Below are positions 2,960 through 59,935 of a stretch of DNA of 64,000 bases, in pieces. Below the pieces are notes generated by a model. It made no database searches, had not been told where the DNA came from, and saw nothing but the letters and a program-made list of their open reading frames with translations. Each line of letters opens with the position of its first letter. The stretch's first letter is position 1. Made by a program: the position numbers and the translations under genes. The stretch is from Obrimoposthia wandeli (Eukaryota), in assembly GCA_977020255.1 (NCBI GenBank), contig CDROCS010001116.1:1-64000 (forward strand). The letters are read 5' to 3'.

Positions 2960-3925
2960 CAACTTGGAACTGTGCTCCATAGCACATGACAATTGTTTCC
3001 AATTTACCCATGATGGACAATCCATCAAAAATAGGTAACATTCAGCTTAGATATCGGTGTCTTCGCATAATTAATTAAGTTTACTCGTATCTCGGTTGAT
3101 GACGGCCATCGATTTTTTAGTAAAATTATAATTTCGTCGTTTATCGATGTAATTACACTTGGCGCGGATGATACTATTTCAGCATGATATTTTGGCTGGA
3201 TTGAGTTGGTCACTTGTTCTCGGATCATATTGATTCTTTGTGGCTTTTTATTTTTAGCTTCCCACTTCCGGTATCCGCTGTCAATGCGTAACTCTGCCGT
3301 TGCTTTGATGATTTTATTGTTAGTCACTTCCGGATGGGTTGGCGAATGGAATCCTTCTATTACGCTCAACCTTACAGATACTTCCGTTTGATCTGTCTCT
3401 AACCGGTGAGATTCTGGTATACAACATACAATTGTCTTTCCATCAAAGTATTTTGTGTCCATCTGACAAATTATCTTTTCAGTGTCAGCGTCGATTAAAT
3501 GGACTCTCATGATATCTCTTTTCCCATGTGAATTACGTAATACCATTATTACATCGTGGTATTCTTGTTTGAGTTTTTTGGGGTACCATGCAGTATGTGA
3601 CCACCGGCCGGTTCTTTTTCTTCCTGACTGGCTAGTCCTGCTTCAGTACTGTCATAGTTCTGCCATGCAACTATGTTTGGTGTCAATGTGATTTCGATTA
3701 TCACTTTCTCAGTCGTAAACACATTGGAATTTTGATAAAGTGCTGCGACTAGTGTATTTCCGTCGTAGTATGACACTCTAAGTTCGCACAGAAATTCGTT
3801 TGTCAGTGCATCTTTCACAATGACTTCTTTAGCCACATCTGTGGGTTGTGTTTTTTCGAAAACGACTATTATCTCTTCGTCTTCTTCTAATATCTCTTGT
3901 GGTGCGATGTGTCGGATTACTTCCT
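2960..3925 (-). CDS. Three tandem IPT/TIG-like (Rel-dimerisation-type) repeats following integrase
   Basis: IRHIAPQEILEEDEEIIVVFEKTQPTDV...YYDGNTLV; HILHGTP...MRVHL...YFDGKTIVCCIP; EIVSSAPSVITSINDEIIILL...YF(D)GLSI. The shared Y[YF]DG motif shows internal triplication. Confidence 0.55.
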
Positions 3926-3929
3926 TTTC

Positions 3930-5200
3930 CTCCTGGTACTTCATTCTGAGCATACCAATTCTCGCTGGTTTTTTCTCGCTACCACTAGTCATCATGTTTA
4001 TGTAGTTCCGATCACTTACCATTCGTGTAAGTTTAATGGTATTGGTATTTGGCTTCGATTTCTGTGATCTTAACTCATATCGTGACGCATTGTCTTTATT
4101 TGGTACCAATTTGCATCGATTTGCATGTACAATCATCGGTTCCTTGTTCCGATTCTCTTCGTTGATTACTTTCAAATTTGTTGAGGTTGTCTGGATCACC
4201 TTGTATGGTCCTTTGTATGGTCTATGAAGTTTAAACGATAGACCTGGTTCGATGACTGGATAAAATATCATCACTTGATCTCCGACTCTAAATTCATGTG
4301 GTTTTGCTTTTTTGTCGTATTGTTCCTTGTAACCTTCTTGATTGAATTTCAACTTCAATCCGGCTTTGGTCCAAGCATCTTGTAACCTTTCCTTCATGAC
4401 GACAATGTATTGTTCAGTTTCTAGGTACTGAGATGTTGGCTCGGTCCACTCCAGATCCATTGGCATATTGTTCTGTCTGAGATACATCAGATAGAATGGT
4501 GTGTGACCTGTCGCCTCTCGAACTGAATTCCTGTAAGCATATAAACATGAAGGTAAATATTTATCCCAATCCTCTTGCTTATCTGAGCAATAGGATTGTA
4601 CCATCATACATAAAGTTTTATTAAACCTTTCCACCAGACCATCTGTCTGTGGGTGGTATGGTGAAGTTTGTAACTTCATGATTCCGAATATCTTCGATAC
4701 TGCTTTTATGACTTCTCCAGTGAAGTTCTTACCTTGATCCGTTAACAACTTTCTAGGTACTCCGTATCGAAATATTATCTCTTCCACTAAGATTTGCGCT
4801 ATTGTTTCAGCTTTCTGGTTCTGCATGGGGTATGCTTCTACCCATCTCGTCATGTAGTCCGTAAATACTATGACATACTTGTTTCCTTTACTTGATTCTC
4901 TCAATGGTCCCAAGCTATCCATCGCTGTGAATTCCATTGGTGCCAAGGGAACTGGCATTGGTTTCAACGGAACTTTAGTACGAGTTCCGGTGTCTTTTCT
5001 GGTTAAACATACTTTACATTGTTTACACCATTGTTTTATGTCGTCTTCCATACCATCCCAATGGTACTTCTCTTTGATTCTGGCTATTGTCTTTCGCCCT
5101 GACAGATGTCCTCCTAGTGTTCCGTCGTGATACTGATCATCACTGCTGTTTTCAATGACTTCGGAATTACTACTACTATCTTTCCGACATTATTGACAAT
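3930..5200 (-). CDS. pol: Integrase (HHCC, DDE core, GPY/F module)
   Basis: CKQC, AMDSLGPL, LTDQGKNF, YHPQTDGLVERFN, YKGPYKV. Confidence 0.96.
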
Positions 5201-5217
5201 ATACAAGATTCCTTCTT

Positions 5218-7044
5218 TTATCGAGTATTTTTCGCCATCTCATCGTTTAGATCTCCTTTCACCAACAAGTCTTTGATTAGACTCAGCTCTTCATCTTCTT
5301 TCTGTTCTTTGATGATCTCTTTGTCTATTTTACCCGTCTTTAGCAAAATCGTCAGTAGATTTGCTTCTCCTTTTTGGTCATTGGTTTCATCTTCTTCTGG
5401 AATTATGTTTCCTTTCTCGTCTACATTTGTCAATCTCGATAAACAATCTGCGTTGCCATTCGACTTTCCGGTTCTATAACGGATTTCTAGATCGAATTCG
5501 GCCAATTTTAGAAACCATCTGTTTAATCTACTCATCTCATCTCTATGTTTATATAAGAACTGTAGTGGTTTGTGATCTGTATACAGGAATACTTTTTGTC
5601 CTAGCAAATAGTGTCTGTATTGTCTACATGAATACACTATGGCTAGACATTCCTTTTCGATAACAGAGTATCCTCTTTCAGCTCTGTTTAATCCTCTACT
5701 CGCATACGCGATGACGTGTTCTCTTCCTTCGTCATCCTCTTGTCCCAATACTGCTCCTACAGCATAGTTACTTGCATCTGTCATAAGTATGAATTGTCGG
5801 TTTATATCTGGAAACGCTAATATTGGTGCTTTTATCAGTCTTTCTTTTAAATGCTCGAACGCTTGTTGGGCTTCTTTTCCCCATATGAACTTTTCATCTT
5901 TCCTTGTCAACTTTCTCAATGGTGTTGCTATATCTGAAAAATGTTCAACAAATCGTCTATAATAATTCGCAAGACCTAAAAAACTCTGTATTTTCTTAAC
6001 AGTCTTTGGCGCTAAATGCGCTTTGACTTTCTCGATCTTCGCTGGATCAGGTCGAATGCTTTCTTTCGATACTATATGTCCTAAAAATGTTACTCCTCTT
6101 TAGCCCATTCGCATTTTGTAGGTTTAACTTTTAATTTAGCGTTTTCCAGTCTTTTAAATACAACTTCAAGATTTTTTAAATGTTCTTCGAACGTTTTAGA
6201 AAATATTATTATGTCATCGATATAAACCATCGTGTTTGCACACGATGCGAGTACAAAATTCATGCAACGCTGAAATGTTGCTGGAGCTCCTGTCAGTCCG
6301 AATGGCATCTTTTCGCATTCGTACAATCCATCTCCGCAGGAAAAGGATGTTTTGTGTTTATCCTCTTCCTCTATCTCGATTTGCCAGTATCCACTCTGCA
6401 AATCTAATGTCGTAAAATAATCTGAATTACCCAATTTATCGAGCATCTCTTCGATTCTAGGTAATGGATACACATCTTTTCTTGTGATCTTGTTCAGTTC
6501 TCTGAAATCTATACAGAATCTCATTTTCCCATCCTTCTTTTTTTTGCACCAACACCACTGGTGCTGAGAATGGCGAAAAACTTGGTCTAATTACTCCTGT
6601 TTTAGACATATCTTCGATCTGACTTTTTACTTCATCTTGTAATTGTAATGGTACTCGATATGGTCTTCTTCTGACTACTTTGTCTTCTGTCAGTGGTATT
6701 GTATGTTTTATGACAGGTGTTTCTCCTATGTCATATGGATTTTTTGCAATTACTTTCGGAAATTTATGTATTAGATCAAGTAATTGTTTCTTTTCTCTAG
6801 TTGTCAGTCTTTCTGATTGAATTACTATTTCTTCGTAATCATTCGTATCTTTATCGAGTTTCATAGCACACGGTGGGATTCTCCATCTGTGTATCTTTCC
6901 CAACCTCATTCCTCTGTATAATAGAATGTCATTGTTGGTTGTATTCATCAGTCTAACTGGTATTTTATGGTTTTCGATCAGGCATACTGTACTCACAACT
7001 GGTAATTCGTATTTCTCTATGAAATCTCGTGATGGTTCGAACAC
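5218..7044 (-). CDS. pol: Reverse transcriptase and RNase H (frameshifted)
   Basis: RFCIDFRELN, YPLPRIEE, LDLQSGYWQ, MPFGL, YIDD; RNase H TDASNYAVGAVL, EKECLA, TDHKPL. Confidence 0.97.
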
Positions 7045-7099
7045 AACTGGTCCTTTATCTTCTGATAATGTGTGACCTTGAATAAGAAATTGCGATCTT

Positions 7100-7560
7100 T
7101 TACCGATTTTTAGGATTCTCTATGATTACATCAATTTGGTTTATTTGTCTGTTTGATGTGCTATCCTTCAATCTTGGATCTTGTAAATCAATACTTATCC
7201 CTTGCTGTTGTGATAGTACATCCATTCCTAAAATTGTAGGTTCAGGACATTCTTTCATGATTCTAACTGGTATAGTGATCGTATTACGTCCAATTATAAA
7301 TGTACATGGTAATATTCTCGTCACTTTTACAGGGTCTCCATTGACCGATACCAAGAATTCATCTGGTTCTGCCATTGTTCGTTTCTGTTCCTCTGTCAAA
7401 CAGTCTTCACTTACTATCGAAGCTACAGCACCTGTATCAATTAAAGCTTTTACTCTTAAATTATTTACTCTAATGATAGCTGCTGGTCGCTGTGCTCCAT
7501 TTATGTTTCCCATGTGGTATATTGTATTTATCGAATTATTACACTCTGTCAGTCCACCTT
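7100..7560 (-). CDS. pol: Aspartic protease domain 2
   Basis: KALIDTGAVASIV...ILGMDVL. Confidence 0.92.
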
Positions 7561-7985
7561 CCTATGTTTGGATAGTGAAATCTAATGCTCACTTGTCGAT
7601 CTATTATTCTTCGACAAATTGGACATGATACCATTTCATTCGCACATCTCCGACATGTTCTTACATGTCCGCATGGTAGAAAGGCAACTTCTATTTTGTT
7701 GACCATGCAAACTGCGCATTCCGGATCTTCTAGTACGTATTCTAATTCATTTATGTACTCTTTCTCTTGTTTCAATTGTACTGTCATCTTTATCTCGCAG
7801 TATTCAAAAATCGATCCGTATCCGTTTCGCGTAGTTTTTATTTTTAATTCTACCAATTCTCTGATTCTTTCTGCTTCTTTTGGATATAACCTTCTTACGA
7901 ATGACACTACCGGTGTGTCTTGTTGAGCTAAAATCTCTTTCCGTGTGATTTGGTATTCGATTATACATTCGGTTTTCTGTTCTTT
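7539..7985 (-). CDS. IAP UBA-like linker plus C3HC4 RING
   Basis: DTPVV...RIRELVELKIKTTRNGYGSIFE resembles the cIAP UBA. CAVCMVNKIEVAFLPCGHVRTCRRCANEMVSCPICR is an IAP-type RING. Confidence 0.9.
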   Translation of the reverse strand, partial: KEQKTECIIEYQITRKEILAQQDTPVVSFVRRLYPKEAERIRELVELKIKTTRNGYGSIFEYCEIKMTVQLKQEKEYINELEYVLEDPECAVCMVNKIEVAFLPCGHVRTCRRCANEMVSCPICRRIIDRQVSIRFHYPNIGRWTDRV

Positions 7986-7989
7986 TTGC

Positions 7990-8200
7990 TTTATTTTGTT
8001 TTTAAAAATACAAAATTCTGCAAAATTCATGATGTAAAATTTTCTTAGGTAGCTCAAGAGTATATCTGTCGATAATTCGTTCTTTTACACTTGTGGCATT
8101 TAATTACGTCTTTACCATCCTTATAGCAAAAAGTCCCTTTTTTGCCAATTTTTAAGTCTTGGATCTTCGAAAGTTACTTCTCGATATTGTTCGTCACATT
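7990..8200 (-). pseudogene. Degenerate or frameshifted BIR domain 2
   Basis: Across frames: REVTF...KLAKKG.FCYKDGKDVIKCHKC...HHEFC. The His-Cys spacing is not canonical. Confidence 0.55.
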
Positions 8201-8329
8201 CGTTCACTTCTCGCATAACTTCGTATATATCTTCAATTCGACTATTCATTATTACTCTTCCTGTTTTTAGAGCTGCTTCTCTTTTTAGGATCCGTCACTG
8301 TAATCGAAATCGGTGCTTTTCCCGGTTGG

Positions 8330-8586
8330 ATTTCTGGTACGTTTGACGTTTTCAGTTTCAAAAGAAATGGACAATTTGGTGCATCTCTTTTATGACGTCT
8401 CATTGGGTTTTCATTCTGTTCCCATTCTCTAAACTTTACTCTACACCATACGCATCGTACTACTATCTCCTGACCATAACTGCTTGTCGCATTTAGCATT
8501 TCTAAACCTGATCTTGCCATTTTACGTGCCATTCCTTTTGAATAGTACTGTTCTAATATATTTCGTCTCTTTCTCTCGAATCTCAT
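8330..8586 (-). CDS. BIR domain 1 of an element-borne IAP
   Basis: Exact CX2CX16HX6C signature (CVWC...H...NCPF, 8371-8454), preceded by MARSG. Confidence 0.92.
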
Positions 8587-8799
8587 GGGATCCTTTTCTG
8601 ACAGATTTACATATGTTATTTTTCTCCTCGTCGTATCTTGTGGTCCGAAATTTACATTTTTGTAGTGAAGTATCGACTTTGCTAGCGCTTCACTGTTTTT
8701 TGTCTGGGTACGAACTTCCCATACAGAACATATTGTATTTTTCCTTTTCGACTACAGGTCATCTCAACATTTTTATCTCTCTCACTGAACTGTCATTCT

Positions 8800-9130
8800 T
8801 ATAATTTTTGTTGTTTGGTAGTATAATTATTCCTTCAAACATTCGTATTACGTCCATCCCAATCATGACTGGACTACCGCAATCTGTGAATATTCTAGCA
8901 TTTAACTGTAATGCTCTTCCATCGATATTCAATGAACATTTCAGTGTTCCTTCCGACACTACATCTGTACCATTCACGTTAACAAATGTCTGTTTTCTAG
9001 GACATACTTCTCTTAATTCTTTTGATGACAAGATTTCTTTACTCAGTACTGATACTGCAGATCCGGTATCAACTTCGGCAAGATATTCTCTTCCGTTCAA
9101 TGTTACTGCTACTTGTGGTGGAGCATTTGG
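8800..9130 (-). CDS. Aspartic protease domain 1 (retropepsin)
   Basis: LAEVDTGSAVSVL...VMIGMDVI. Confidence 0.88.
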
Positions 9131-9236
9131 ATTCTCATTTGATATCCTAGACTTCAGAATTCTTCTGGAATTATCTTTTTGTCTTTTTCCTCTGCTTGTG
9201 GAATTTCAGTGTAGCTCACTTTAGGCCATCTTATCA

Positions 9237-11340
9237 TTAAGATGCCTCTCTTGAACTTTTCCTTCTCTCCTCCTTTCGTTCCTTCATTGCATATCGCCTT
9301 AACGCCACTTCCTCTTTGTCTGGTAACGGAATCTTTGGTTTTCCTGGTATCTTTGCATATACTCCTGGACTATCATTATCGTCGTCGTTATCGTCTCGAT
9401 AGTTTCTTGGTTCTCTCATCATGGTTCTCGTTTGGTGTTGTTCCTTCTTGAGGGCTCGCAACTCGTTCTCGTGATGATGATGGTGCATTAGATATTTTGC
9501 TAAAAATGGAAAACATCCAATTATAAGTTGCCAGGTGATTCCGGTTATCCTGTATAAACTATACGTAGACAACACCTGGGCTATAATTACCTGCACAAAT
9601 TTAATTATAACATAAATACCTATGATACCCGAAAATAATTGTCCTAAAACAAGGAATTTCCCCCACATCTTTCTAAGTGTCTGATGTGCTGCTTCCTTGA
9701 AATGACTTGGCGATAATAACATATCGAAATTCGCATATCTCGCTCCTGGCGGTAATGCTCGATGTACCATCTCCGTAAGTACTCTGGCTCTTCTTACTGG
9801 AAACATTATTTCGTTCCACGCCGCTTTTAAATCTTTTTCATTGTACAATCCTGCGTTCTCCATATTTTCCACCGCTTGGAATTTCATTTTACCTTTAAGA
9901 TTAGTCATTCTTATCATCGCTGGGGTTTTCGTTGGCTTTCGATCAGGTAACGTTATCCATAGATTATTCGTCATCTGATATTCAGGTGCCATTATATTAG
10001 AGCAGCTGATTTCTTTAGTTGGAGTGTCTTTTGGAAGCAACATTCTCGTGATTGGTTCAACAAAAAGATCTTTTAAATTATACGTTACTGCCAATTCGCT
10101 CGTACATCGATCTGTTTTTCTCAACTGTACCTCTACTTTATTACACTTGTAAGTATACTATACTTCTCCCATGGTTTTAGCAAATACTCCTTCATCCAAG
10201 GGTAATAATGGTGCTACCATGTCTGGATTCGTAATAGCTAATGCTAACTTTGTTCTTACGATCTCTTTGTTTAGCTGGCAATCTCTTTCTATCATCATCC
10301 GATATAACTGTTCCATTTGCATCAATCCTTTATGATAATAGAAATCAATTTTATTATTAAAATACGTGTGTAGCTGCATATCTTTTGGTTTTAGCTTGGT
10401 TTCTGCCAATGCTATTGCTTCTTTAGACAAAACTATTCCTGGATAGTTTGTAGTACTAACAGTCATTCCGCATCGCGCTTTGTTTCTCTTTTTAATAAAT
10501 ATCAATCCTTCTTCTATTGATGTTGCCATTAACAGTGTAGGTGTCTTTGTCATTGGAATTGGTCTTGTTTCATTGAGCAATCCTTTTCCTACTTTATTAT
10601 ACAGGAATCCTTTCTCCATCTTTATTATACAGGAATCCTTTTATTTTATTAAAGCTAATCTCTTTCAAAAATACTAAAGAGCATTGCTTCGGATTTATGT
10701 TATACATAATTTTGGCTTCCCCTGTAAAACAGGATGCATCTGTCATTTTACATTCTGGATACTTCATCATTAGTTGTGTCTTTTTATCAAAATTGGCGGT
10801 CCATGTTTTTAATTCGATCTTGTAAGTTACATCCATTACTAACTCAGATACTTTGGTTCCACGCACGTTTTTGTTTCTCCGTCACAAGATCCATCGGCCC
10901 ATCGTTGTCCGACTCTCGTGACTGTTTCGTATCGTCTCACTCCAATTTTACTTCAGGTTTGTAATTTTGTCTACCTCTATTGTTCCCGTTCGAAATGCAT
11001 CTTCGCAATCTCTCGGCAAACCTTATGTGCCTTGTACGGTGTGGTAGGTGTGATTTCTGACATAAAAACTTCTATGACCACAATAGAATTCGTGATAACT
11101 TGAATGGATTGAACATTCTTTCACTTCTACTTGTACTTTATCAACATCCTGATACACAAAGTAGTTTTCAACACCTTGAACTTCTAGTTTTGACGGTTGT
11201 GATTCTGGACAGTCTTCGCTGTCAAGCAGTGAATACTTTTGTCCCATCTTTGGTATGCTACAGTCATATGCTATCAATCCTGATGCCTGTTGCATTCCCA
11301 TAAACATTACTAACATCATCATCATCATTGTTGTGGACAT
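9237..11340 (-). CDS. env: Envelope: chuvirus (Jingchuvirales)-type glycoprotein, ~700 aa, in 4-5 frameshifted pieces
   Basis: Signal peptide then LIAYDC, FYCG, TNYPGI, TYFNNK, DCQL, GEV..YKC, AGLY..D, IMFP and a C-terminal TM region. The order and spacing match chuviral G motifs as I recall them. Confidence 0.85.
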
Positions 11341-11399
11341 ATTTGGTTGATTGTTTCTCTCTTTCGGACGGTATTGTTTATTTTCCTTTGACGATTCTC

Positions 11400-11857
11400 A
11401 TGACATTGTTCGTCATCGTCTTCATTCATTTCCACAATGGTTTTAGCGTAGTCACTTAATTTTGCCCAACCTCCATTTTCGTCGATTCGTCTCTGTAATA
11501 CATTCTCGATCAAAATACATTGCTTCATTTATTCCTTGTTTGACTTCGTGAGGTTGGCTCGTTCGTTCCGTCAATTGGAAACATAGATATGTGATTGCTG
11601 TAATTAACTTTTATTTGTAGTTTGGTTTCCACATAATCTCGCTAAAACTTCACCGTCATAAAATCTATCTATCGATGCATGGTATACATGATTCGCGGTC
11701 ATTCTCTTTACTGCAGACATCTGTGATCTGACTGCTTTAGTCAAATTGTCTCGTTATATCGGTTGTTTCATCTCTGTACATTTTAAACAACTTCGGCTTC
11801 ACTTGCCTGAGAATTCCCGTAAGTATATCTTTACTACTTGGAGTTTCCGAATTCATA
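11400..11857 (-). pseudogene. Possible Bcl-2-fold domain split by frameshifts
   Basis: Reconstructed EVKQGINEAMYLIENVLQRRIDENGGWAKLSDY resembles the BH2 region (WIQENGGW). A hydrophobic helix KLITAITYLCFQL lies upstream. Confidence 0.4.
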
Positions 11858-12112
11858 TCACCTCTGATATCTTCTATTCCTTTCTGCACTATACTGCTCC
11901 AATGACGCTGCTAACTGTCCAATGCTTAGATGTCTCTCTTCATCAGTTTGTGGTGCAGTTAGAACGTTTCGTAATATACTTTCGCCTTTTCTAGGTCTTC
12001 CAGGTCCTCTTCGAAAATACTGATACTCAGTTTGATTCTCTCCCTGGATCATACGGTTCATCATTATACTGTATCTCTTGACTTGGTCCTTCTTCATGGC
12101 CAATCTCTTCAC
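11858..12112 (-). CDS. AT-hook-containing fragment, probably a frameshifted continuation of the Ubl ORF
   Basis: RRGPGRPRKG motif. Confidence 0.6.
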   Translation of the reverse strand: MKRLAMKKDQVKRYSIMMNRMIQGENQTEYQYFRRGPGRPRKGESILRNVLTAPQTDEERHLSIGQLAASLEQYSAERNRRYQR

Positions 12113-12178
12113 TTTGTCTCATCATCTGCTCTGCTTGTCTATCTTTGTATGCAGCATGCCAAATTGGTGAATCTAAAT

Positions 12179-12742
12179 CTACAATTTCGAGACTTCGTCT
12201 TCTCCTACTAGTTGGGTTACGGTTTCGTTTTGTCTCACTTGGTTAGCTGTATCCGTGACTTCATCTTGTCTGATTGGAATTATATCTGCTGGTGGCACCT
12301 CGACCACTGGAGTTGTCAACTCATTTTCTAAATTCATGTCTTGTAATTCAGTTACGTACGGTTCTGGTGTGGATGTCTTGTTCCAAGCTTCAGCTACATC
12401 ATTATCTCCGCTTTCGCTTGAACTGTCTAAAATTTCTATAGGCGTTTTTATCATTTCTAACGCAGAATTCAATATCTCGGTTAATCCTTCATTATCTACT
12501 AACTCTTGACGTCCTACAGTGATGACATCAATTTTTTCCTCTAATTCATTTCCTATCGGATATCCAAACTCGACTGGTACGTCCTCATCATCTAGTGATC
12601 TCCCTTTATAATGGAACAACATATTCATTCCATCAATTTCAAGTTTCTCAGCCAACTTTTTCCGAATCGTTTTCATTGTTTGATACACGTTAAGTTTTTC
12701 ATGTATTATCTGTCCGGAAATTAATCGAAGTGAAATTTTCAT
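12179..12742 (-). CDS. Ubiquitin/SUMO-like domain protein with acidic tail; ATG overlaps the gag stop (ATGA)
   Basis: MKISLRLISGQIIHEKLNVYQTMKTIRKKLAEK...LFHYKGRSLDDEDVP...KIDVI aligns by eye with ubiquitin and SUMO beta-grasp patterns. Confidence 0.7.
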   Translation of the reverse strand: MKISLRLISGQIIHEKLNVYQTMKTIRKKLAEKLEIDGMNMLFHYKGRSLDDEDVPVEFGYPIGNELEEKIDVITVGRQELVDNEGLTEILNSALEMIKTPIEILDSSSESGDNDVAEAWNKTSTPEPYVTELQDMNLENELTTPVVEVPPADIIPIRQDEVTDTANQVRQNETVTQLVGEDEVSKL

Positions 12743-14991
12743 CGTTCCTTTTGGTTTGATCTCTGTACATAACGACCATAACCTTTCAGTAGTCCTCGGG
12801 GTACTTCTTTGTAACCCAAGTTATCATGACTATGTTTAACCAATTCTGCACGCACTTCTTCCAATCGGTGCACTTTAATTGTTTGCAATTTGGCCAGAAC
12901 TTCTGGAGCTTCACTCGTTTCATCTAACGGTTGATTTAACGTCTCCTTAGCTTCACTAATTATCTTTTTTACATTTTCCATACTCGTAGCATTTCTCGCT
13001 GCTTCCACATGATCAGTCATAGGTTGTGCGTTACACGTTTTCTCTATTGGTGTCTCATACGCTTCTAATATTCTATTCATTAAATCATTCATCTCTTCTC
13101 TCGAATGTAGACTTTTCTCTTGTTTCGACAACGTAGATGAATTCGCCATCTTTGTATGTGGTGAATCTTTAATTATTCCCAACATTCGTTCAAATTTACT
13201 ATCACTATCTTCAAAATCTATTTCGCGTCGAAGCTCGGTCTCGCGATTCCTATCACTGTCATCGCTTACATAACTAAAATTTCCTTTCGGTTTCGGCGAA
13301 CTCTCACGACTATTTGTCTTGTCAACATTATTATTATTATATCTACCGGAATTATTATATCTCTCAGCTCCTTGCTGTCCTACGTAATTATTGTATCTCT
13401 CAGCTCTATGCTGTCTGTATGCATAGTTATTATATCTACCTGGTGACTGTTGTCTATCTGTATACTGATTATTCAGTCTCCATGGTTGGGGAGTATATCC
13501 ACCACCTCTATTCCATGGCGGAGGTGAATTATATCCTCTATAATTATTTCCAAAATTATTATTACCGAAATTATTATTTCCAAATCTGTTAGTTCCGAAC
13601 TCTTTACTTCTCGTACAATCTCTCGAATAATGACCCATTTGTTTACACGTGTAACACATTATTCTCCCTCGAATATCTATCTTATTTTGTTCATCTTCGA
13701 ACTGTACTCGACGACTATTCTGTCTATTATCATAGCGTCCTCTAAAATCATTTCTTCGGAAATTCGATTCAAAACCGCTTCCTCGATTATTGAATCTTCC
13801 GTCACTATTTCCTGCATTATTTCCAAATCGAGAGTCACTTCGCTCTCCTCTGTTGGCGTTATAATTCCTATCGTCTCCTCTCAAGGTTGGCGATTTCGAA
13901 TTATCTCTATTAAATCTATTCCTGGAATCATCTCTATTTCTATTCCACGAATCATTATTATTTCTACCTCTTGAATCATCTCGATTCCTGTTCCAAGACT
14001 CACTATTATTTCTACCTCTCGAATCATCTCGATTCCTACTTCGGAAATTATCTCTATTTCCGTTACTGGATTCATCTACTTTTTCGAACTTATTTTGTCC
14101 ATAACTTCGATTCTGAAAATTACTCGGTTCTGTTTTATTCACGAAGACCTTTGTCTTATCGTCGTCACCTGCAGTCATTGCGTAGATTGCCAATGCTGCG
14201 TTATTCTTTATATTTTTCTCAATCTCTCTCGCCTTTCGCACGGCGTTATCAAAATCATTTGTATCCGATACTGCTAATAACACTTTAATATCCTTTTTCA
14301 ATCCTCCTCTAAATATATCTAACAAAACCTCTGCCATTTCATTTTGGTTCCGGTCATTTTCCGCTGCTTGTGCTTCTTGAGGTACAGGAATACCGTCCTG
14401 ATTTCTCATTATTCTTCTTGGGTACGCTCTTGCGGCCAAGGTTCTCAAAACATACGCGTATTCATTCACGCCTTCATCATGTTTCTGTTTCCGTTCTCTC
14501 ATGAGTCGCTTATTTACTTTGGCTAAGTCTCCTAATACCAATTTTCCAATAAAAGCATTTTCCAACGTTGGCCAATCTAAACGTTCTGCTTCTGTCAAAT
14601 GTTTATACACTTCAAGTGCTAATCCGGTTAAATGTGCCTGTACTCTAACACATTTTTCTTTATCGTTCCATCCTTGAACATCTGCACAACTCGAATATTC
14701 TGCGAGGAAGTCACAAATACTTTCCTCATCTCCTTTAAACTTTGTAATCTGCAATGATCCTGAAAAGTTGGGTCTCAACGTCGCATTTAAAGCTTGTGCC
14801 AACTGCTCGGCATTCATTTCACCTACATTATTTCCTGCATTAATATCTGCTTGAGCTCCTGGTTGAGCCATATTTTCAACTATAACTTCTTCAACTATTT
14901 CTTCAATATTATTCAATGGAACTTCCTCAATCACTACTGGATTGGCAATTTCAAATTCTTCTTGGTCTATGTCACCAAATAATTCAGTCAA
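12739..14991 (-). CDS. gag: Gag polyprotein (capsid region, N/R/G-rich repeats, single CCHC zinc knuckle)
   Basis: Retrotransposon capsid-like KFKGDEE...GWNDKEK...HLTGLA. Zinc knuckle CYTCKQMGHYSRDC. The frame is open upstream to ~15243 and the first in-frame ATG is at 14871. Confidence 0.93.
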   Translation of the reverse strand: MTELFGDIDQEEFEIANPVVIEEVPLNNIEEIVEEVIVENMAQPGAQADINAGNNVGEMNAEQLAQALNATLRPNFSGSLQITKFKGDEESICDFLAEYSSCADVQGWNDKEKCVRVQAHLTGLALEVYKHLTEAERLDWPTLENAFIGKLVLGDLAKVNKRLMRERKQKHDEGVNEYAYVLRTLAARAYPRRIMRNQDGIPVPQEAQAAENDRNQNEMAEVLLDIFRGGLKKDIKVLLAVSDTNDFDNAVRKAREIEKNIKNNAALAIYAMTAGDDDKTKVFVNKTEPSNFQNRSYGQNKFEKVDESSNGNRDNFRSRNRDDSRGRNNSESWNRNRDDSRGRNNNDSWNRNRDDSRNRFNRDNSKSPTLRGDDRNYNANRGERSDSRFGNNAGNSDGRFNNRGSGFESNFRRNDFRGRYDNRQNSRRVQFEDEQNKIDIRGRIMCYTCKQMGHYSRDCTRSKEFGTNRFGNNNFGNNNFGNNYRGYNSPPPWNRGGGYTPQPWRLNNQYTDRQQSPGRYNNYAYRQHRAERYNNYVGQQGAERYNNSGRYNNNNVDKTNSRESSPKPKGNFSYVSDDSDRNRETELRREIDFEDSDSKFERMLGIIKDSPHTKMANSSTLSKQEKSLHSREEMNDLMNRILEAYETPIEKTCNAQPMTDHVEAARNATSMENVKKIISEAKETLNQPLDETSEAPEVLAKLQTIKVHRLEEVRAELVKHSHDNLGYKEVPRGLLKGYGRYVQRSNQKER

Positions 14992-15483
14992 ATTAAAACT
15001 GCCGGTTGAAACCGCTGATTGATCAACGCCTCTTTCTGATACGTTTTCTTCGACTCTAGTCTTTTCTGTTACTTTGTTATCTGTTTGGGGAACCTGTTCA
15101 ATTCGGTTAACTTTATTATTATTTATCTCTTCCTTGGGAATCTGACTTTGTCTTCTAGTATTATACGCGGGTCCTTTTCTATTATCCGTTGTCTTATCAA
15201 TTATGTATTCGTTTACGATATCAATATACTTATTATTTTTATCTTATTTCACAATTCTTATTTTACGATTTTTTATCTCTTTAATTAGTTCGAGGACAGA
15301 GTCTCCCGACTTAACCTATTCAATTAATTACTTCGAGTATCAATCCACTCGATTCTCACTTTATCAATTTATTTACGATTTTATCTTTTTAATTAGTTCG
15401 AGGACAGAGTCTCCCGACTTAACTTATTCAATTAATTACTTCGAGTATCAATCCACTCGATTCTCACTTATAAAATTTACTGA

Positions 15484-16263
15484 CTCGAGGAACAAATCCA
15501 CTCGACTTCTCAAAACTTATCAAATTCTTACTTCGAGGAACGAATCTACCCGATTTCTCAACACTTATCAAATTCTTAACTTCGAGGAACAAATCTACCC
15601 GATTTCTCAACACTTATCAAATTCTTAACTTCGAGGAACAAATCTACCTGATTTCTCAACACTTATCAAATTCTTAACTTCGAGGAACAAATCTACCCGA
15701 TTTCTCAACACTTATCAAATTCTTAACTTCGAGGAACAAATCTACTCGATTTCTCAACACTTATCAAATTCTTAACTTCGAGGAACAAATCTACCCGATT
15801 TCTCAACACTTATCAAATTCTTAACTTCGAGGAACAAATCTACCCGATTTCTCAACACTTATCAAATTCTTAACTTCGAGGAACAAATCTACCCGATTTC
15901 TCAACACTTATCAAATTCTTAACTTCGAGGAACAAATCTACCCGATTTCTCAACACTTATCAAATTCTTAACTTCGAGGAACAAATCTACTCGATTTCTC
16001 AACACTTATCAAATTCTTAACTTCGAGGAACAAATCTACCCGATTTCTCAACACTTATCAAATTCTTAACTTCGAGGAACAAATCTACCCGATTTCTCAA
16101 CACTTATCAAATTCTTAACTTCGAGGAACAAATCTACCCGATTTCTCAACACTTATCAAATTCTTAACTTCGAGGAACAAATCTACCCGATTTCTCAACA
16201 CTTATCAAATTCTTAACTTCGAGGAACAAATCTACTCGATTTCTCAACACTTATCAAATTCTT
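15484..16263. repeat. 49-bp tandem array (16 copies) in the 5' leader
   Basis: Unit TTCGAGGAACAAATCTACCCGATTTCTCAACACTTATCAAATTCTTAAC, starting at 15532, 15581, 15630 ... 16218. It is preceded by two related 108-bp units at 15289 and 15397. Confidence 0.97.
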
Positions 16264-16289
16264 ATCTCAATTTACTTATATCTTCTTCT

Positions 16290-16560
16290 GAAACTTATTC
16301 TCAATTGTCTATATTCTTCTGCTGAAACTTATTCTCAATATTTCTGAAACTTATTCTCAATATATGAAACTTATTCTTAATATCTGAAACTTATTCTTAA
16401 TATCTGAAACTTATTCTCAATATCTGAAACTTATTCTTAATATCTGTACTTATTCTATTTACCTGAAACTTATTCTCAATTATCTGCAACTTATCTGAAC
16501 TTATTCTATTCACCTGAAACTTATTCTCAATTTTCCAAAACTTATCTGAACTTATTCTAC
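16290..16560. repeat. ~20-bp degenerate tandem repeat just downstream of the PBS
   Basis: (TATCTGAAACTTATTCTYAA)n. Confidence 0.85.
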
Positions 16561-16585
16561 GTGAATTCGCTGTGTCCGACGAGCT

Positions 16586-16604
16586 ATCCTCACTCGGGGC
16601 ACCA
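16586..16604 (-). promoter_or_regulatory. Primer-binding site complementary to the 3' end of elongator tRNA-Met
   Basis: Sense TGGTGCCCCGAGTGAGGAT. The plus strand ATCCTCACTCGGGGCACCA matches the animal elongator tRNA-Met 3' end including CCA. It sits 8 nt from the LTR end. Confidence 0.9.
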
Positions 16605-17097
16605 CTTTAATATGTTGGGGTTTCTATACGAAACTTGGTATAGAGCCTCTTGACTGTGCGGAGGTCCCCAACGTGAGTTCGATTAGAAGCAGGTCTTAAA
16701 GTTGGTCGTGGCCTACTTAGTGTTATGGTTGCCTAATCTCTTGTACTATCTGAAGGTATTTGATTTGATGTCTCTTAGTCTGAAGGGTGTAAAAACAACT
16801 TGTTCTAATGTAGGAAATTGTTTATTCAAAATTCACGTAACTAACACCACAATACGTTTATGTACGTATTTCTAAAAAGTATGATAAAATTCCTAAAGGA
16901 CTTCTGTGAGTCTCTACAAGAAGTGGGGATGAACCACGTATCGATTTTACGTTCAGGTGATTAAGTTTCTTAGTTTTAGTCTTCTTACTCAGGTTGGTTA
17001 ATCTATAACGCAACTCTCTTAAATTTCTTCGCTCCTACTTCTTATCTCTAGCTACAATTTCTTGGTTCCTTACTCTCTCTGTGTGTGTTTGACCCGA

Positions 17098-17526
17098 ATT
17101 GTCTATTGTAGACAAGGGATCTCCTAAAAACCTAATTGTCAAGATGACAATGAAAACTTACTCCTAATTGTCAACTATGGACAATGAACGAACCGAATTG
17201 TCAGCTAGTGGACAATGAGTCTTACCGAATTGTCTACTAGGGACAATGAATATTTATCCGAATTTCCAACTAGGGGAAATGAATGAACCTAATTGTCAGC
17301 TAGGGACAATGAATCTTACGGGAAAAACGTCTGGTAGGTTTCCTAATTGTCGCTGGGGACAATGAATAAATGTCCGATCCTAATTACCAACTAGGGGCAA
17401 TGATTGTGTTAACGAGACAGTGATCCTAATTGCCAGCTAGGGGCAATGAATTTGTGTATTATTAAGAAAATGTAGAATTACCAACTAGGGGTAATGAATA
17501 TATCCTAATTGCCTACTAGGGGCAAT
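17098..17526 (-). repeat. Array of 12 short hairpins with covarying stems inside the LTR
   Basis: Units are ATTGTC-N5-8-GACAAT, with variants ATTTCC/GGAAAT, ATTGCC/GGCAAT and ATTACC/GGTAAT. Most loops contain CTAG. Spacers vary in length. Confidence 0.9.
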
Positions 17527-17649
17527 GAATGAACCTAGTCGGTGGTCTTACCAGTTACTCGAGATTCCTAAACGCGGTGGGATGTCCGATGCTGTTTCCG
17601 ATATCGTCTTCTCGCTCAGCCTTAGTCTTTTGGATACTGTCGGATCGAG

Positions 17650-18070
17650 TCTTTTGGGATACTCAGATATACTTTGGATATTCAGATATACTTTGGATAT
17701 TCAGATACACTTTGGATATTCAGATACACTTTGGATATTCAGATACACTTTGGATATTCAGATACACTTTGGATATTCAGATACACTTTGGATATTCAGA
17801 TACACTTTGGATATTCAGATACACTTTGGATATTCAGATACACTTTGGATATTCTTTCAAATATACTTTGGTTACTGTCTTTCAAATATAATTTGGTTAC
17901 TGTCTTTCAAATATACTTTGGTTACTGTCTTTCAAATATACTTTGGATACTGTCTTTCGAATATACTTTGGTTACTGTCTTTCAAATATACTTTGGTTAC
18001 TGTCTTTCGAATATACTTTGGTTACTGTCTTTCAAATATACTTTGGTTACTGTCTTTCAAATATACTTTT
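17650..18070. repeat. 19-bp tandem repeat grading into a 25-bp tandem repeat within the LTR
   Basis: (TTTGGATATTCAGATACAC)n followed by (TTCAAATATACTTTGGTTACTGTCT)n. Confidence 0.95.
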
Positions 18071-18152
18071 CTTTTCGGCTATACTTTTCCGCTCAACCTG
18101 CAGTCAGGGAGTTGATTCTGAATTTGTGTTTTCTGTCTTCAAAACCTCTGCC

Positions 18153-18158
18153 TTTATA
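18153..18158 (-). promoter_or_regulatory. Candidate LTR TATA box (sense TATAAAGG); predicted start site near 18122
   Basis: TATAAA ~450 nt inside the LTR 5' end, with an Inr-like TTCAGAAT ~30 nt downstream. A sense AATAAA at 16821-16826 would give a long R region. Confidence 0.45.
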
Positions 18159-18689
18159 CGAAACTTCCTGTCAGTCAACGACAGCTGAAATGAAATTAAA
18201 AGTTATTCGACTGCACAAAATGTGCTTACCTTTTCCTTGATTGACGGTTTGATTGCTGGAGAATATTCTTCCTGTCAGTCAACGGCAGCTGAAAAAACTC
18301 AAATTGATTTTACTGCACGAAATGTGCTTACCTTTTTTTTCTTGATTGACGGTTTTAATTAACCGTTTTTCTTTTAATTAATTCTTATTTTTTGTCGTCC
18401 TTGTTAATTAACTTTAAACTTTTATATATTTTCGCATAATACACGACCTTCGTGGTCCTCCTAATTTTACCCTAAATTTCACTAATTTTACTTTTAAAAC
18501 TTAATTTAATATTTTAATTTAATTTTCGACCTTGCTTTCAAGGATTTTTATTTTAGTATTTAATCGACTAAAATATTTAATTTTCTTAATTCTCAACCTT
18601 AACACCTTTATTGAAAGACAAAGTTATAATTTTTAAACGCAAATCTTTGGTTTGTATACCTAGCCAGTTAAGAAAATATCTGTCCTCAG

Positions 18690-24954: not shown

Positions 24955-25985
24955 AGGGCTGAGTTTCTAATTGAAACTCTTTGATTAGATCCTCGTATGG
25001 AGGGCCACAACGTGAGTTCTGTAGCGATAGGACTTACAGATAGATGTGGCCTACCTGTTCTTTTCTTACTTCATTCTAGTCTCAAATCTGAAGGTTTTTT
25101 GTGTCTTATTGTCTTGTAGTAAGTTCAAAGAGTTATGTTCACAGAATAGTTAGTGGGACCCCAAAACTAGTGTTGTGTGATGTAGCGTAGGTGGATCGTT
25201 TATCCGCTGAGTTAGCTTTTTACGTCGGAAGGGTCTGGCAACACCAAGACCGAATATCAATTAAACAGAGCCAGGGCCAATCTACGTAGACAATACTCCT
25301 CTGAATCTGTCAGAACGTGGAATATTGTTCCGTGTGTTGTCTCTTGGCTAAACTATATCTTAGGGGGCACACGAATTTCACAAGGGAATTAACTCGTTAT
25401 GAATCTTCGATCGATTTCGCTAGAATAACTATATTTAAATTATCACACTTAGAACTTCCTAAAATTACTCCAGAAATACACAATAGGGTTGATACTTTTC
25501 TATGCGTATATTTTATACGCCCCCTGCTTTAATCACCTTTCAAATTATTCCCCGTACCTTACTACCCGTTTATCGAACTCTTTACTATACTATACTATCG
25601 GTTACAATTTCAAATGATGTTTTCTAAATCAATAACGCTTTAAAATTTAAACTATGTTTATTAAATCCGTAACACTTAAATTCCAGTGATGTTTTCAAAT
25701 CAGTGACGTTTTTCAATTCAATTATGTTTACTTAACAAAGCGTTTTAAATTCAAAACGTAATTTTACTCAATAGCTTTTCAATTCAAAATGTGACTTTAT
25801 TCAATAGCTTTTTAATTTAAAATGTGATTTTATTCAATAGCTTTTTAATTCAAAATGTGACTTTATTCAATGGCTTTTCAATTCAAACTGTGACTTTATG
25901 CAATAGCTTTTCAATTCAAATGTAATTTTATGCAATAGCTTTTCAATTCAAATGTGACTTTATTCAATAGCTTTTTAATTCAAAT
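24955..25985 (-). repeat. Truncated LTR related to 58478-59935
   Basis: Collinear similarity over ~600 bp with the solo LTR, followed by ~33-bp tandem repeats. Confidence 0.8.
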
Positions 25986-27625
25986 TCTGAGAATCTGTAT
26001 ATTGTAATTTACGAGAATTTTAATGAATAAGCGTTTGAAAAAAATATGAAAGTCTAATGTTACTTTTAGGTAATGAGCTTTCTGAAATAAAAATGTACAA
26101 GACATATTACCATCTAAACTTCTTTCAAATATGAAATTTTACAAAAAAAGAAATATAACAATAAATTTACGAAATTGTCACTAGATTGCAAATTGCTGGT
26201 ACAACTTATAATATTTGTATTTCATTCCATGTATAACGACTATTCCTCAAACAGCAAAATTGCTTCTTCTCAAAGTATCCAAATGTTGAATAACTTCAAT
26301 AGTTTTGACAAAATTTATTAATTAAATTGAAATTTTCTTCGATTTGAGGATTTTAACTTATTTAAATTTAGTATTTTATATTATAAGTAGTTAAGACATT
26401 ACAAATAACTTTATTTTAATTGTTTGTAAAAAATAGTTTGTGAATCTGTAAATTTTAAAGTTAGACGTTTACTGAAAAACTAAAGTTAGTGTTTTTGTCA
26501 ATAGTTATTAATTAGTTCTATTAATATTAATCATATTTATTTCAGTTCGTAATGAAGCCTTATTGATGTTATACTGCAACTTATCTAATGAATTATCCAA
26601 ACTTTACAAATAAAGAAATTGAAACGATAGTTACATACTCCATTGCATATGATTAAGAGAGCTCAATTACTAAGAAGAAACTGATAAGGAAACTCCTGCA
26701 AATACTACACAAGTTTGTAAGAAACGTTTTAAGAAAACTATCTGTTTTACCAAAATTAAAATCGCATTATAATCGACTGAATTAAATTCCAGACCAAGTA
26801 AAGGCAAATATTGTCACAGCTTTGAGAGATGACAGTTGTAAATCCAAACATAATCTTTTCGTCAGTTCAATGTTTCTTTGCGTTCTGTTAATAATATGAT
26901 TAAAGACCATGGTTTTAAGGCTTATATAATACAGAATGGTGCAGCAATTAAAGAAAGTTGACTTACCTAAACGACTTACATTTTACAAACTAGTTATCAG
27001 TACAAAATAATAATATTCAGTGACGAAACAATGCTACATATTATTGGCATTACTATACAATGGAAAATGAACACAGGCTTCACAGAGAAACTTCTAAATT
27101 CCAATTTCATAATCATTCTGGCATTGATTCTCTCACGATTATTTTAAACTATGAATTGAGATCGTTAAGTGGACACTATTCGAGATATTGCTATTCCTTC
27201 TCTCTAATATTTGATATATTCAACCTGTTTACCAACAAAAGCTTCCGTGAATTCGAGGAGTGCTGAATACTGGATTAAAATATCGCTGTATTGGGATGTT
27301 TGATTAAATAAGAATTTTTAATTATTTTTAATTGGGTACTAATGTACCCCAAAACACATTGAAATCATAACTCTCCAATTCTTCAAGACTATCAATCATG
27401 GCGTGCTATTATAAGATTAAAATTTGTATATCCAATAAAGAAGATAAAAATCATTTAGAGATATAGGCAAACGTTGTCAGCAGCTGATTTTGCAAAAATA
27501 GAATATGTGCTTTTTAATCAGACTAATGCCAATTTTCAATTTTAACATTATTTATAATTTATGAGAAATTTGCATTGAAATGTTTTAAGGATAATTCATT
27601 TTTTGACGAGAAATACATTTTGTAG

Positions 27626-52063: not shown

Positions 52064-53170
52064 GGAGAAGATATGGTTCAATCCAAAAGATCCAATTGGT
52101 TACACCGGAGTTTTAAAATTAGCAAAAAGAACAAAACAAAATTACAAGAAAACACAGAAATGGCTGAGCGACCAGTTAGCCTACAGTCTGAACAAGCCGA
52201 TGAGAAGAAGGTTTCCAACTAGAGCTTACAAAACCAGCAGTCCTAATAATTTATGGCAAATGGATTTGATGGAGATGATCCCATATTCTTCCATTAATAA
52301 GGGATATCAATATATTTTAACATGTATTGATGTATTTAGCAGGTTTGCTCGTGCAATTCCAGTTAAAGCAAAGTCTTTAATAGCTATGCTTGAAGCCTTT
52401 AAATAAATATTAAAATAGGACATTCCGCAAAATGTGCAAACTGATTTAGGAAAATAATTTTATAATAAGCAAGTTCAATCATTATTTAAACAAAATAATA
52501 TAAATCCCTACTCAGTGTTTTCACAGTACAAAGCAGCAGTAGTAGAAAGATTTAATCGTACTTTAAGAGATCGAATAAAAAAGTATTTCATAAAAGAAGG
52601 AATTAAAAAGTGGATTCAAGTTTTACCTAAAATAATACATGCATATAATCACTCTGAACATAGAAGTCTCAATGGAATAAGATCGGTAAATAAAAGAAGG
52701 AATTAAAAAGTGGATTCAAGTTTTACCTAAAATAATACATGCATATAATCACTCTGAACATAGAAGTCTCAAACATTTAATGTTACTGATAAAAATTCTA
52801 CGGATATTTAGATAGACAGGAATAAAAAAGAAAATGTTAAAATTCTAAATATAAGGAAAACGAATATGTTCGAATTTCTAAAATGAGTTCTACTCCATTT
52901 ATTAAAAAAAATTATCAAAATTGGAGCGATGAAATATTTTGTATAAGTAAAATTGATCAAAAGAGTAATCCAATAATGTATACTATTAAAAATGCTGACA
53001 ATAATATCATTCGGGGTAAATTTTACGAGCAAGAACTACAAGTAATATCAAATAAATCTAAGGTTTTCCACATTCAAAAAATATTAAAAACTAAGGGTAA
53101 ACATAAACAATACTTTTTTAAATGGCATGTTTATTCAGATCCAACTTGGATATCACAATCTAATATAATA
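52064..53170 (+). pseudogene. Maverick integrase with chromodomain remnant
   Basis: LWQMDL, YILTCIDVFSRFA, QTD.GK.F, KAAVVERFNRTL, YN..EHRS; IQKIL..K...KQYF.KW. Confidence 0.9.
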
Positions 53171-58477: not shown

Positions 58478-59935
58478 TGTTTGGGTTTCTATTTGAAACT
58501 CTTCAATTAGATTCTCGTATGGAGGTCCCCATTTTGAGTTCTGTAACGATAGGGCTTACAGACGGATGTGGCCTACTTAATTCTAGTCTCAATCTGAAGG
58601 TTTAGTGTCTTATTGTTTTGTGGTGTGTTCAAGGAGTTGTATTCACATATAGCTAGAAGGGCCCAAAAGCTAGTGTGGTGTGATGTAACGCAGGGTGGAT
58701 AGTTTATCAGCTGAGTTAACTTTTATGTCAGAAGGGTCTGATAACACCAAGACCGAATATCGATAAACCAGAGCCGAGACCAATCGACGTAGACAATACT
58801 CATCTGAATCTGTCAGCACGTGGAATATTGTCTCGTTGGTTGTCCCTCGGCTAATCTATATGTTAGGGGGCTCACGAATTTCACAAATAATTTAACTCGG
58901 AATGAATCTTCTATCGATTTTGCTAAAATAACTTTATTTAACTTAGCACAATTAAAACTTCCTAAAATTATTACAGAATACGCAATAGGGTTGACACTTT
59001 TCTATGCGTATACTTTTATACGCCTCCTGCTACATAATCATTCTTCAAATTATTCCCCGTGCCTTTCTACCCGTCTATCTAACTCTTTAATTTAATATGT
59101 TATTGCCGACTAATTCAATAACGTCGTTTTACTTGAACTGTACTTAAATTCAAACGTCTTTTACTTGAAATGTACTTAAAATTCAATTCTTCTTTACTCA
59201 AAAATGTACTTAAAATTAAAATCGTCTTTACTCAAAATGTATTTAAAAATTCAACTTGTCTTTACTCAAAATGTACTTAAAAATTCAATTCGTCTTTATT
59301 CAAAAAATGTACTTTATGTAAGTTGTGTTTTTTGCTCACCAGTTCAGTTTAAATATCAGTAGTTTCGAATTTGCCAATTTGAATATCTTTAGTTCCGAAT
59401 TTGCTAATTTGAATATCTGTAGTTCCAAAATTTTATCTGTGCTATTCTGATATTTTTCTGCAAAAAATGAGAATTAATTTCTCTTTATGTATCAAATTTA
59501 CTCACTTCTCGCTTCTCGCGGTCTTTGAAGATAGGAGATGGCGGCTGCGTCTCGAAGTATTTCTGTCTGAGTGCTTCTTCACGAACTAATGGAGTCTGAG
59601 TGCTTCTTCGTGAACTAATGGAGTTTGAGTGCTTCTAAATAATGGATTTCCGTTCTTCCTACTTAATTAGTTTTCAACTTCCTTTCCGAAATCCACTCAC
59701 CCTCCCCCACTAGACTTATCTTCCTCGGCCCTTCTCGCACAGTTCTACTCATTCCACACACATCTCCCCACGACCTCTTTAAGGTCCTAATTTATTTTAA
59801 TTCGATATTTTATTCTAAAATCAATTTATTTTTAATTTTCTATTTAAATTCATTTCGACCTTTGATTTTAAAATTAACATTTTTTTATATAAATATTTAT
59901 TTTATTTATCTTATTCAATTTTCCTTAATCTAACA
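58478..59935 (-). repeat. Solo LTR (1458 bp) of a related gypsy family with a 4-bp TSD
   Basis: TGTTTGGG...CTAACA flanked by ATAT on both sides. The terminal motifs are shared with the 16613-18604 LTR. Confidence 0.88.

Follow-up and report, generated by a model that had tools for sequence, protein, structure and literature searches.

A tandem array of probably selected RNA hairpins beside a splice-donor-like site in the LTR of a Burro-like Ty3/gypsy element

The window, by which we mean the whole stretch of 64,000 nt of Obrimoposthia wandeli DNA that was analysed, contains on its minus strand a Burro-like, envelope-bearing Ty3/gypsy element of about 24 kb, identified by profile search and alignment. 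An LTR of 1,992 bp (16613-18604, minus strand; TGTT...AACA), whose borders were set by aligning 30 loci and whose ends are shared by 5' and 3' LTR copies, has a primer-binding site (16584-16604, minus strand) downstream of it in the sense direction, and is thus the 5' LTR. The primer-binding site, which is seen in 5' LTR loci and presumably resembles the 3' end of tRNA-Met, lies 8 nt inside the LTR end. This 8-nt gap (16605-16612) is unusual, and so is the polypurine-tract position, where the right flanks of four 3' LTR loci are not purine-rich. On five contigs, the two LTRs of a pair are separated by 20.6-22.0 kb, and a target-site duplication of 4 bp was found in four of the five pairs checked, the fifth being unmatched. 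The 3' LTR of that fifth pair (contig C2914) is 99.7% identical to the LTR at 16613-18604 and shares the 4-bp flank of the latter (18605-18608), not that of its partner on its own contig, a mismatch which may reflect an assembly break or a misjoin. Because of this near-identical 3' LTR with the same flank, the element in the window is taken to be a young insertion.

The coding region (3025-15243, minus strand) carries several broken frames in this copy. According to Pfam, the polyprotein consists of gag with one CCHC knuckle, a ubiquitin-like stretch (E 0.017, below the cut-off), a Monjiviricetes-type fusion glycoprotein (PF24664) and a protease, followed by BIR (PF00653), RING, a second protease, RT, RNase H and integrase. 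The two aspartyl protease domains (7103-7561 and 8762-9205) flank BIR and RING within one polyprotein. In 3 of 20 other copies, a single open frame holds both the gag and the envelope pieces; a subgenomic RNA for the envelope was considered and is needless, the envelope being in frame with gag. A search with RT-RNase H returned distant relatives only, the best being 52-57% identical. Elsewhere in the window, a 100-bp tandem duplication (52590-52772; two identical 83-nt copies) has a translation that looks integrase-like by eye, and two related segments 33.5 kb apart (25218-26017 and 58721-59636; 79-85% identical), each with its own tandem repeats, are possibly the LTRs of another element.

Per-position identity among 80 sampled LTR ends delimits a superfamily-wide block of about 380 nt (16613-16990, minus strand), corresponding to the 3' part of R and U5, the 16-nt end of which has 21,227 matches in the genome. 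The word ATCGATA at 16939-16945, which we take to be DRE-like, lies inside this block and is nearly invariant throughout the superfamily. A TATA box (18153-18158, minus strand) stands behind duplicated CAGCTG / TGAYTGAC motifs and would place the transcription start near 18128. A TATA-like box is present at LTR position 250-700 in all 28 LTRs with the hairpin array described below, behind CAGCTG or TGAYTGAC in 23 of them, and it keeps its position within poorly conserved surroundings. The poly(A) signal AATAAA (16821-16826, minus strand), about 270 nt downstream of the array, is found at the matching place in 28/28 full array LTRs and in 31/37 others. Between the start site and the donor-like site discussed below are two tandem repeats of 19 and 25 bp (17657-18069), in which subfamilies differ.

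The predicted leader, which runs from the start site to the first AUG of gag (14871-18128, minus strand; 3,258 nt), is AUG-free: it has no ATG on the sense strand, versus 70.8 expected from base composition, and 30 on the antisense strand. The same depletion is seen in 25 LTRs, where the 37,442 nt beyond the TATA box contain 7 sense ATGs and the 11,473 nt before it 34, while antisense ATGs are common (736). The upstream ATGs mostly occur before LTR position 185, which bounds the start only to beyond 185, still upstream of the array. Given the TATA box, the downstream AATAAA and the AUG-free leader, a long R of about 1.3-1.5 kb is likely, and these motif positions make it probable that the array lies within R and thus at both ends of the RNA. 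The preliminary description of this DNA had proposed such a location downstream of the TATA box at 18153, which agrees with the motifs. Its suggestion of a TAR-like element is not supported: TAR is a lone hairpin at the extreme 5' end of its transcript, and the array begins about 600 nt behind the predicted start. Its argument that a location in U3 would leave the array untranscribed was faulty, as an array in U3 would still be at the 3' end of the RNA.

The array itself consists of 12 stem-loops (17098-17526, minus strand) with a 6-bp stem, AUU(G/A/U)(U/C)C paired with G(A/G)(C/U/A)AAU, and a loop of 5-8 nt, mostly C-NNN-G-Y-W. The units start at 17098, 17135, 17167, 17197, 17229, 17262, 17292, 17346, 17383, 17429, 17477 and 17508, the last ending at 17526. 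The twelve hairpins and their stem variants had been correctly located in the preliminary description, and the LTR alignment (16613-18604) confirms that they lie inside the LTR. That description gave CUAG as the loop, which holds for 8 of the 12 units in the window, but it is the C-NNN-G-Y-W form that is kept, and CUAG is not supported as the recognised feature. The unit at 17383 was said to be the only mismatched one; the outer pair of unit 17098 is imperfect as well. Eleven perfect 6-bp stems with 5-8-nt loops were counted in the 450-nt array. No other 450-nt tile of the window (140 tiles; mean 1.08) had more than 5 such stems, and none of 1,000 mononucleotide shuffles had more than 3.

The fold z-score of the whole array is -4.35 for the plus strand and -2.88 for the sense (minus) strand, and these values do not tell the strands apart. 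Single isolated units fold at -3.5 to -5.9 kcal/mol, and in a partition-function calculation on the sense strand with a span of 40 the pairing probability was at most 0.25 for 7 of the 12 units, with no rise at 15-25 C. According to the folding models, many units in context lose to swapped or long-range pairings, and the models rate the single hairpins as marginal. Rfam gave no match to the array, its lone hit lying outside the array at chance level (E 0.39). The array was likewise unmatched in phages, metagenome contigs and viral contigs, a set with few animal genomes which says little about its spread. Literature searches, which mostly fell outside subscription journals, returned no match for tandem or compensatory hairpins in LTRs, nor for pseudo-triloops in combination with retrotransposons.

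The distribution of the array among relatives was studied in 80 LTR ends, which were drawn, following contig order, from the first 100 among the 21,227 matches. The array is present in 25 of them and absent from 55, and the number of units per LTR ranges from 7 to 16. The motif scan found the Gag knuckle in 14 of 20 internal loci, letter-identical in all 14, and these loci span LTRs with the array, with a second hairpin (type B) and with no hairpin. Since relatives without the array have an identical knuckle, the array is optional; the same identity led us to reject a subfamily-specific code of co-evolution between Gag and hairpin. The type-B hairpin (AGAGY-loop-RCUCU), of which there are up to five copies 350-520 nt from the LTR 3' end, is nearly exclusive with the array: it occurs in 42 of the 55 non-array LTRs versus 1 of the 25 array LTRs, and the remaining 13 non-array LTRs have neither. 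Its closing pair covaries (34 U-A and 34 C-G of 87), with commoner mismatches and no clear strand bias. In other subfamilies, represented by five LTRs, the slot of the array is filled by unrelated tandem repeats that contain short perfect palindromes.

Comparison of 302 seven-nucleotide loops shows that C1 (301 loops) and G5 (all 302) are kept while positions 2-4 vary, the loop middles of sister subfamilies including CUC, CUU, GAA, AUC, ACA and GCA, among others. Single changes at C1 and G5 do occur (116 and 84 matches, counts to which no denominator is attached), each including inherited LTR pairs. A cross-loop pair between C1 and G5 would be an attractive possibility. The bases next to the stem also recur, UUC before it and U(A/C)GG after it; the recurrence is partly biased by the detection anchors, and it was also seen in a stem-only scan. 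What stays is thus the AUU/AAU base of the stem, C1, G5 and the flanking bases, while the pairs at stem positions 4 and 5 change. This does not support two proposals of the preliminary description, namely that CUAG or UAG is recognised in the loop, the three middle bases being free in sister subfamilies, and that the spacers vary freely, apart from the anchor bias just mentioned. A site for a UAG-loop protein (Musashi or hnRNP A1 type) was rejected, as sister-subfamily loops have UCG, UUG, AAG, ACG and CAG. Kissing loops, a loop-flank pseudoknot and U1A-type loops were discarded too, because the loops vary without changes in a partner or because the bases concerned are paired.

The variation of pairs 4 and 5 carries the strand on which pairing is maintained. 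A unit pattern that covered 7-nt CUAG-type loops and left the two variable stem positions free had 20,711 matches in the genome, and the reversed-pattern control had none. One-sided stem changes giving a G-U pair on the sense strand numbered 1,922 and 776 in the two classes (2,698 in all), versus 23 and 21 (44 in all) for the mirror mismatches, A.C or C.A on the sense strand. Counted over the unit cells of 62 LTRs, the ratio is 92 to 1. As LTR copies are related, these counts do not represent separate events, and the curated set of 101 LTRs includes 40 that were chosen for stem state. About 26 LTR pairs (some 52 rows, counted by eye) were seen among 100 listed rows of the 776-match class; since LTR pairs carry them, the G-U states have passed through retrotransposition. 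Within each of the mirror lists (23 and 21), no contig has two rows. Outside the stems, transitions of the kind that makes G-U and the others stand at 22:14 when shared and 28:21 when singleton, a skew of 1.3-1.6-fold. The preliminary description had drawn its case for selection on sense-strand pairing from the G-U pair of unit 17383, which alone is a coin toss; the genome-wide figures bear the claim out.

Covariation across LTR copies, which had been proposed as a check, was found as well. Pair 4 alternates between G-C, A-U and U-A and pair 5 between U-A and C-G, and positions 17265 and 17277 change together in all 26 of the copies that differ. A pyrimidine at pair 4 on the plus-strand left arm has 35 matches, 17 of them compensated as in unit 17262, and there is no match in the genome for a purine at pair 5 facing a pyrimidine. 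In 71 LTRs with 11 scored units, the stems were followed position by position. Unit positions 5, 8 and 9 display the series U-A, U-G, C-G, and then G-C, G-U; A-U is reached at positions 8, 9 and 10, and position 11 has U-G and C-G. Throughout, the arms change while each unit position retains its own loop, which favours point changes over conversion. Pair 4 is hardly ever relaxed before pair 5 has become C-G, with 1 exception among 100 listed rows.

Pairing is also kept in register. With the 20 loci picked for mismatches omitted, 4 of 682 unit cells are mismatched against their own partner, versus 112 of 620 after swapping neighbours; over the 22 distinct state vectors the figures are 3 of 242 and 36 of 220. 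Some defects are inherited: C.A in the terminal unit (six LTRs), U.U and G.A (one LTR pair each) and an open outer pair (five LTRs). Taken together, the comparison of copies makes it very probable that the feature is a selected array of RNA hairpins. The strand bias names the sense strand, and alone it does not separate RNA from single-stranded DNA.

A splice-donor-like site, G/GTAAG (17547-17552, minus strand), lies 25 nt upstream of the first hairpin; it is new and is absent from the preliminary description. In the 60 nt that precede the first hairpin, G/GTRAG was found in 99 of 101 array LTRs, 95 of them at 23-25 nt, versus 0 of 707 control windows; of these 101 LTRs, 40 had been picked by stem state and 30 by closeness to the window. 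The donor core is kept as neighbouring bases diverge (22 non-redundant rows), and a pattern joining hairpin and donor, with loops and spacers varied, has 914 matches genome-wide. No such fixed donor-like site was seen in the non-array LTRs. Neither a conserved nor an array-clade-specific acceptor was found, the TTTCAG behind the primer-binding site being present in non-array elements too; the tandem repeats there (16322-16559) contain eight TTTCAG acceptor-like words, and most relatives have similar ones whether or not they carry the array. Three extra sense-strand GTAAG words occur in hairpin spacers (17157-17161, 17221-17225 and 17315-17319) and are absent from the more divergent subfamilies compared. 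Many LTRs, though not those of the window's subfamily, have an earlier donor-like site 70-110 nt behind the TATA box and then T-rich tandem repeats, which may mark an intron inside R.

The array thus begins at a nearly fixed distance from a conserved donor-like motif upstream of it, and a conserved AATAAA follows downstream. The explanation we rank first, with a probability of roughly 0.4, is that the array is a multivalent RNA dock which controls donor use, polyadenylation or the export of unspliced RNA. Transcription from about 18128 would place the donor, the array and AATAAA all in R, at both ends of the RNA. Each weak hairpin would bind a single protein copy, which would recognise the loop and the base of the stem, and the 7-16 copies would provide avidity. 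The bound protein could be encoded by the host or be an element protein other than the knuckle, and it might set the outcome of U1 snRNP at the donor, be it splicing, suppression of the 5' poly(A) site or export of unspliced RNA; these last two steps are weaker than the others. The hairpins would stay weak enough for scanning, which fits the AUG-free leader. In foamy virus, a donor in R binds U1 snRNP and suppresses 5' polyadenylation, being masked by structure at the 3' end, and a 462-nt insertion relieved this suppression (PMC3694450). The gap of 725 nt between donor and AATAAA argues for caution as to donor-mediated suppression here. Donor and array could also be neighbours by descent alone.

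Packaging, ranked second after the donor-coupled nuclear role, does not exclude it, and we regard it as possible but rather doubtful. Related RNAs in their thousands would compete for one Gag pool, and hairpins binding the knuckle would add avidity as a booster of Gag nucleation, other subfamilies using AGAGY-loop-RCUCU to the same end. The array is directly behind the donor, where retroviral psi sits, the invariant loop G and the GG flanks would suit CCHC knuckles, 21,227 LTR ends have one U5 end in common, and the second hairpin family occupies 42/55 non-array versus 1/25 array LTRs. Yet an identical knuckle accompanies the array, the type-B hairpin or neither, 13 of 55 non-array LTRs manage without either hairpin, and the 3' copy of R would mark spliced RNA too. 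Unlikely, in our opinion, is a cytoplasmic element for localisation, stability or translation, bound by a host protein and with the donor as a separate feature: the AUG-free leader, the weakness of the hairpins (-3.5 to -5.9 kcal/mol) and a place at both RNA ends, if in R, would suit it, but the tight spacing of the donor is left unexplained. A little less likely again is a role between RNAs, either dimerisation through kissing loops or swapped arms or an aid to minus-strand transfer across R. CUAG is self-complementary and folding models favour swapped and long-range pairings, whereas the loops of sister subfamilies are not self-complementary and the covariation is in the register of each unit's own partner.

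The two readings that dispense with RNA pairing are both very improbable. Tandem inverted half-sites within an LTR could be palindromic duplex-DNA sites for a dimeric transcription factor, but such a factor, if symmetric, should bind half-sites combined in either mirror order, and the two orders are seen at 2,698 to 44. Spacers of 5, 6, 7 and 8 nt, too, have each become fixed in lineages. Hairpins of the sense strand as single-stranded DNA, grouped with this reading, would tolerate G-T wobble as well. A neutral by-product, in which duplicated units were converted by one another or had their palindromes corrected in the course of reverse transcription, is strongly disfavoured. The units did arise by duplication and their number varies from 7 to 16, the recurrent path at several positions could come from conversion, and related copies inflate the counts. 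A 61-fold bias is nevertheless not expected of a strand-symmetric correction, position-specific loops are kept through changes of the arms, and the mutational skew is small.

More generally, and tentatively, exchangeable modules of donor and hairpin array in the kilobase-long R of giant enveloped gypsy elements may act as a tunable multivalent switch for splicing, polyadenylation and export or for packaging, with subfamilies that have the same proteins exchanging one hairpin family for a rival; we consider this generalisation doubtful. If it is true, such modules would be an undescribed class of retroelement cis-element, with compensatory intermediates caught in thousands of copies. For few LTR retrotransposons is there a known route past splicing and early polyadenylation, or a known way of choosing their own RNA. 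A short repeated unit with more than 20,000 natural copies allows permitted and forbidden changes to be read and makes both the binding partner and the recognition rules testable with short RNAs, and the copies document, with unusual clarity, how stems evolved in nature by compensation through G-U intermediates.

Several known systems resemble parts of this arrangement. Hairpins with a C-NNN-G pseudo-triloop include the IRE, HBV epsilon and the HIV TAR loop; as in these, loop C1 and G5 are kept with three varying bases between them, while the array has a 7-nt loop, no bulged C and no match in Rfam. The RxRE is a retroviral export element made of one long folded domain. Elements of the CTE type license the export of unspliced RNA (PMC12789967). 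The MPMV CTE and RRE share with the array a structured RNA in or near the LTR, for which an export licence is proposed here, but each is one long folded domain, unlike the row of independent 19-nt hairpins here. The layout of the element is like that of Burro, the giant gypsy of planarians, with a mononegavirus-type envelope in frame between gag and pol, BIR, RING, a ubiquitin-like stretch, thousands of copies and tandem repeats (PMC6431247). Burro exceeds 30 kb and has two or three knuckles, compared with about 24 kb and one knuckle here, and the available portion of its description does not mention an LTR hairpin array (PMC6431247); the layout is best called Burro-like. The foamy virus LTR shares a donor or donor-like site followed by AATAAA in both LTRs, here judged by motif position, and with it the same problem of 5' versus 3' ends; the difference is that the 725-nt gap between the two is filled here by a 7-16-fold array, none being described for foamy virus in the portion of the report available (PMC3694450). 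Retroviral psi likewise has small stem-loops just 3' of the donor (PMC12789967), and the present element encodes a CCHC knuckle. The hairpins here are not confined to the 5' leader: they lie within the LTR, upstream of AATAAA and at both RNA ends if R is as long as predicted, 55 of 80 LTRs are without the array despite the same knuckle, and the array is made of many near-identical copies.
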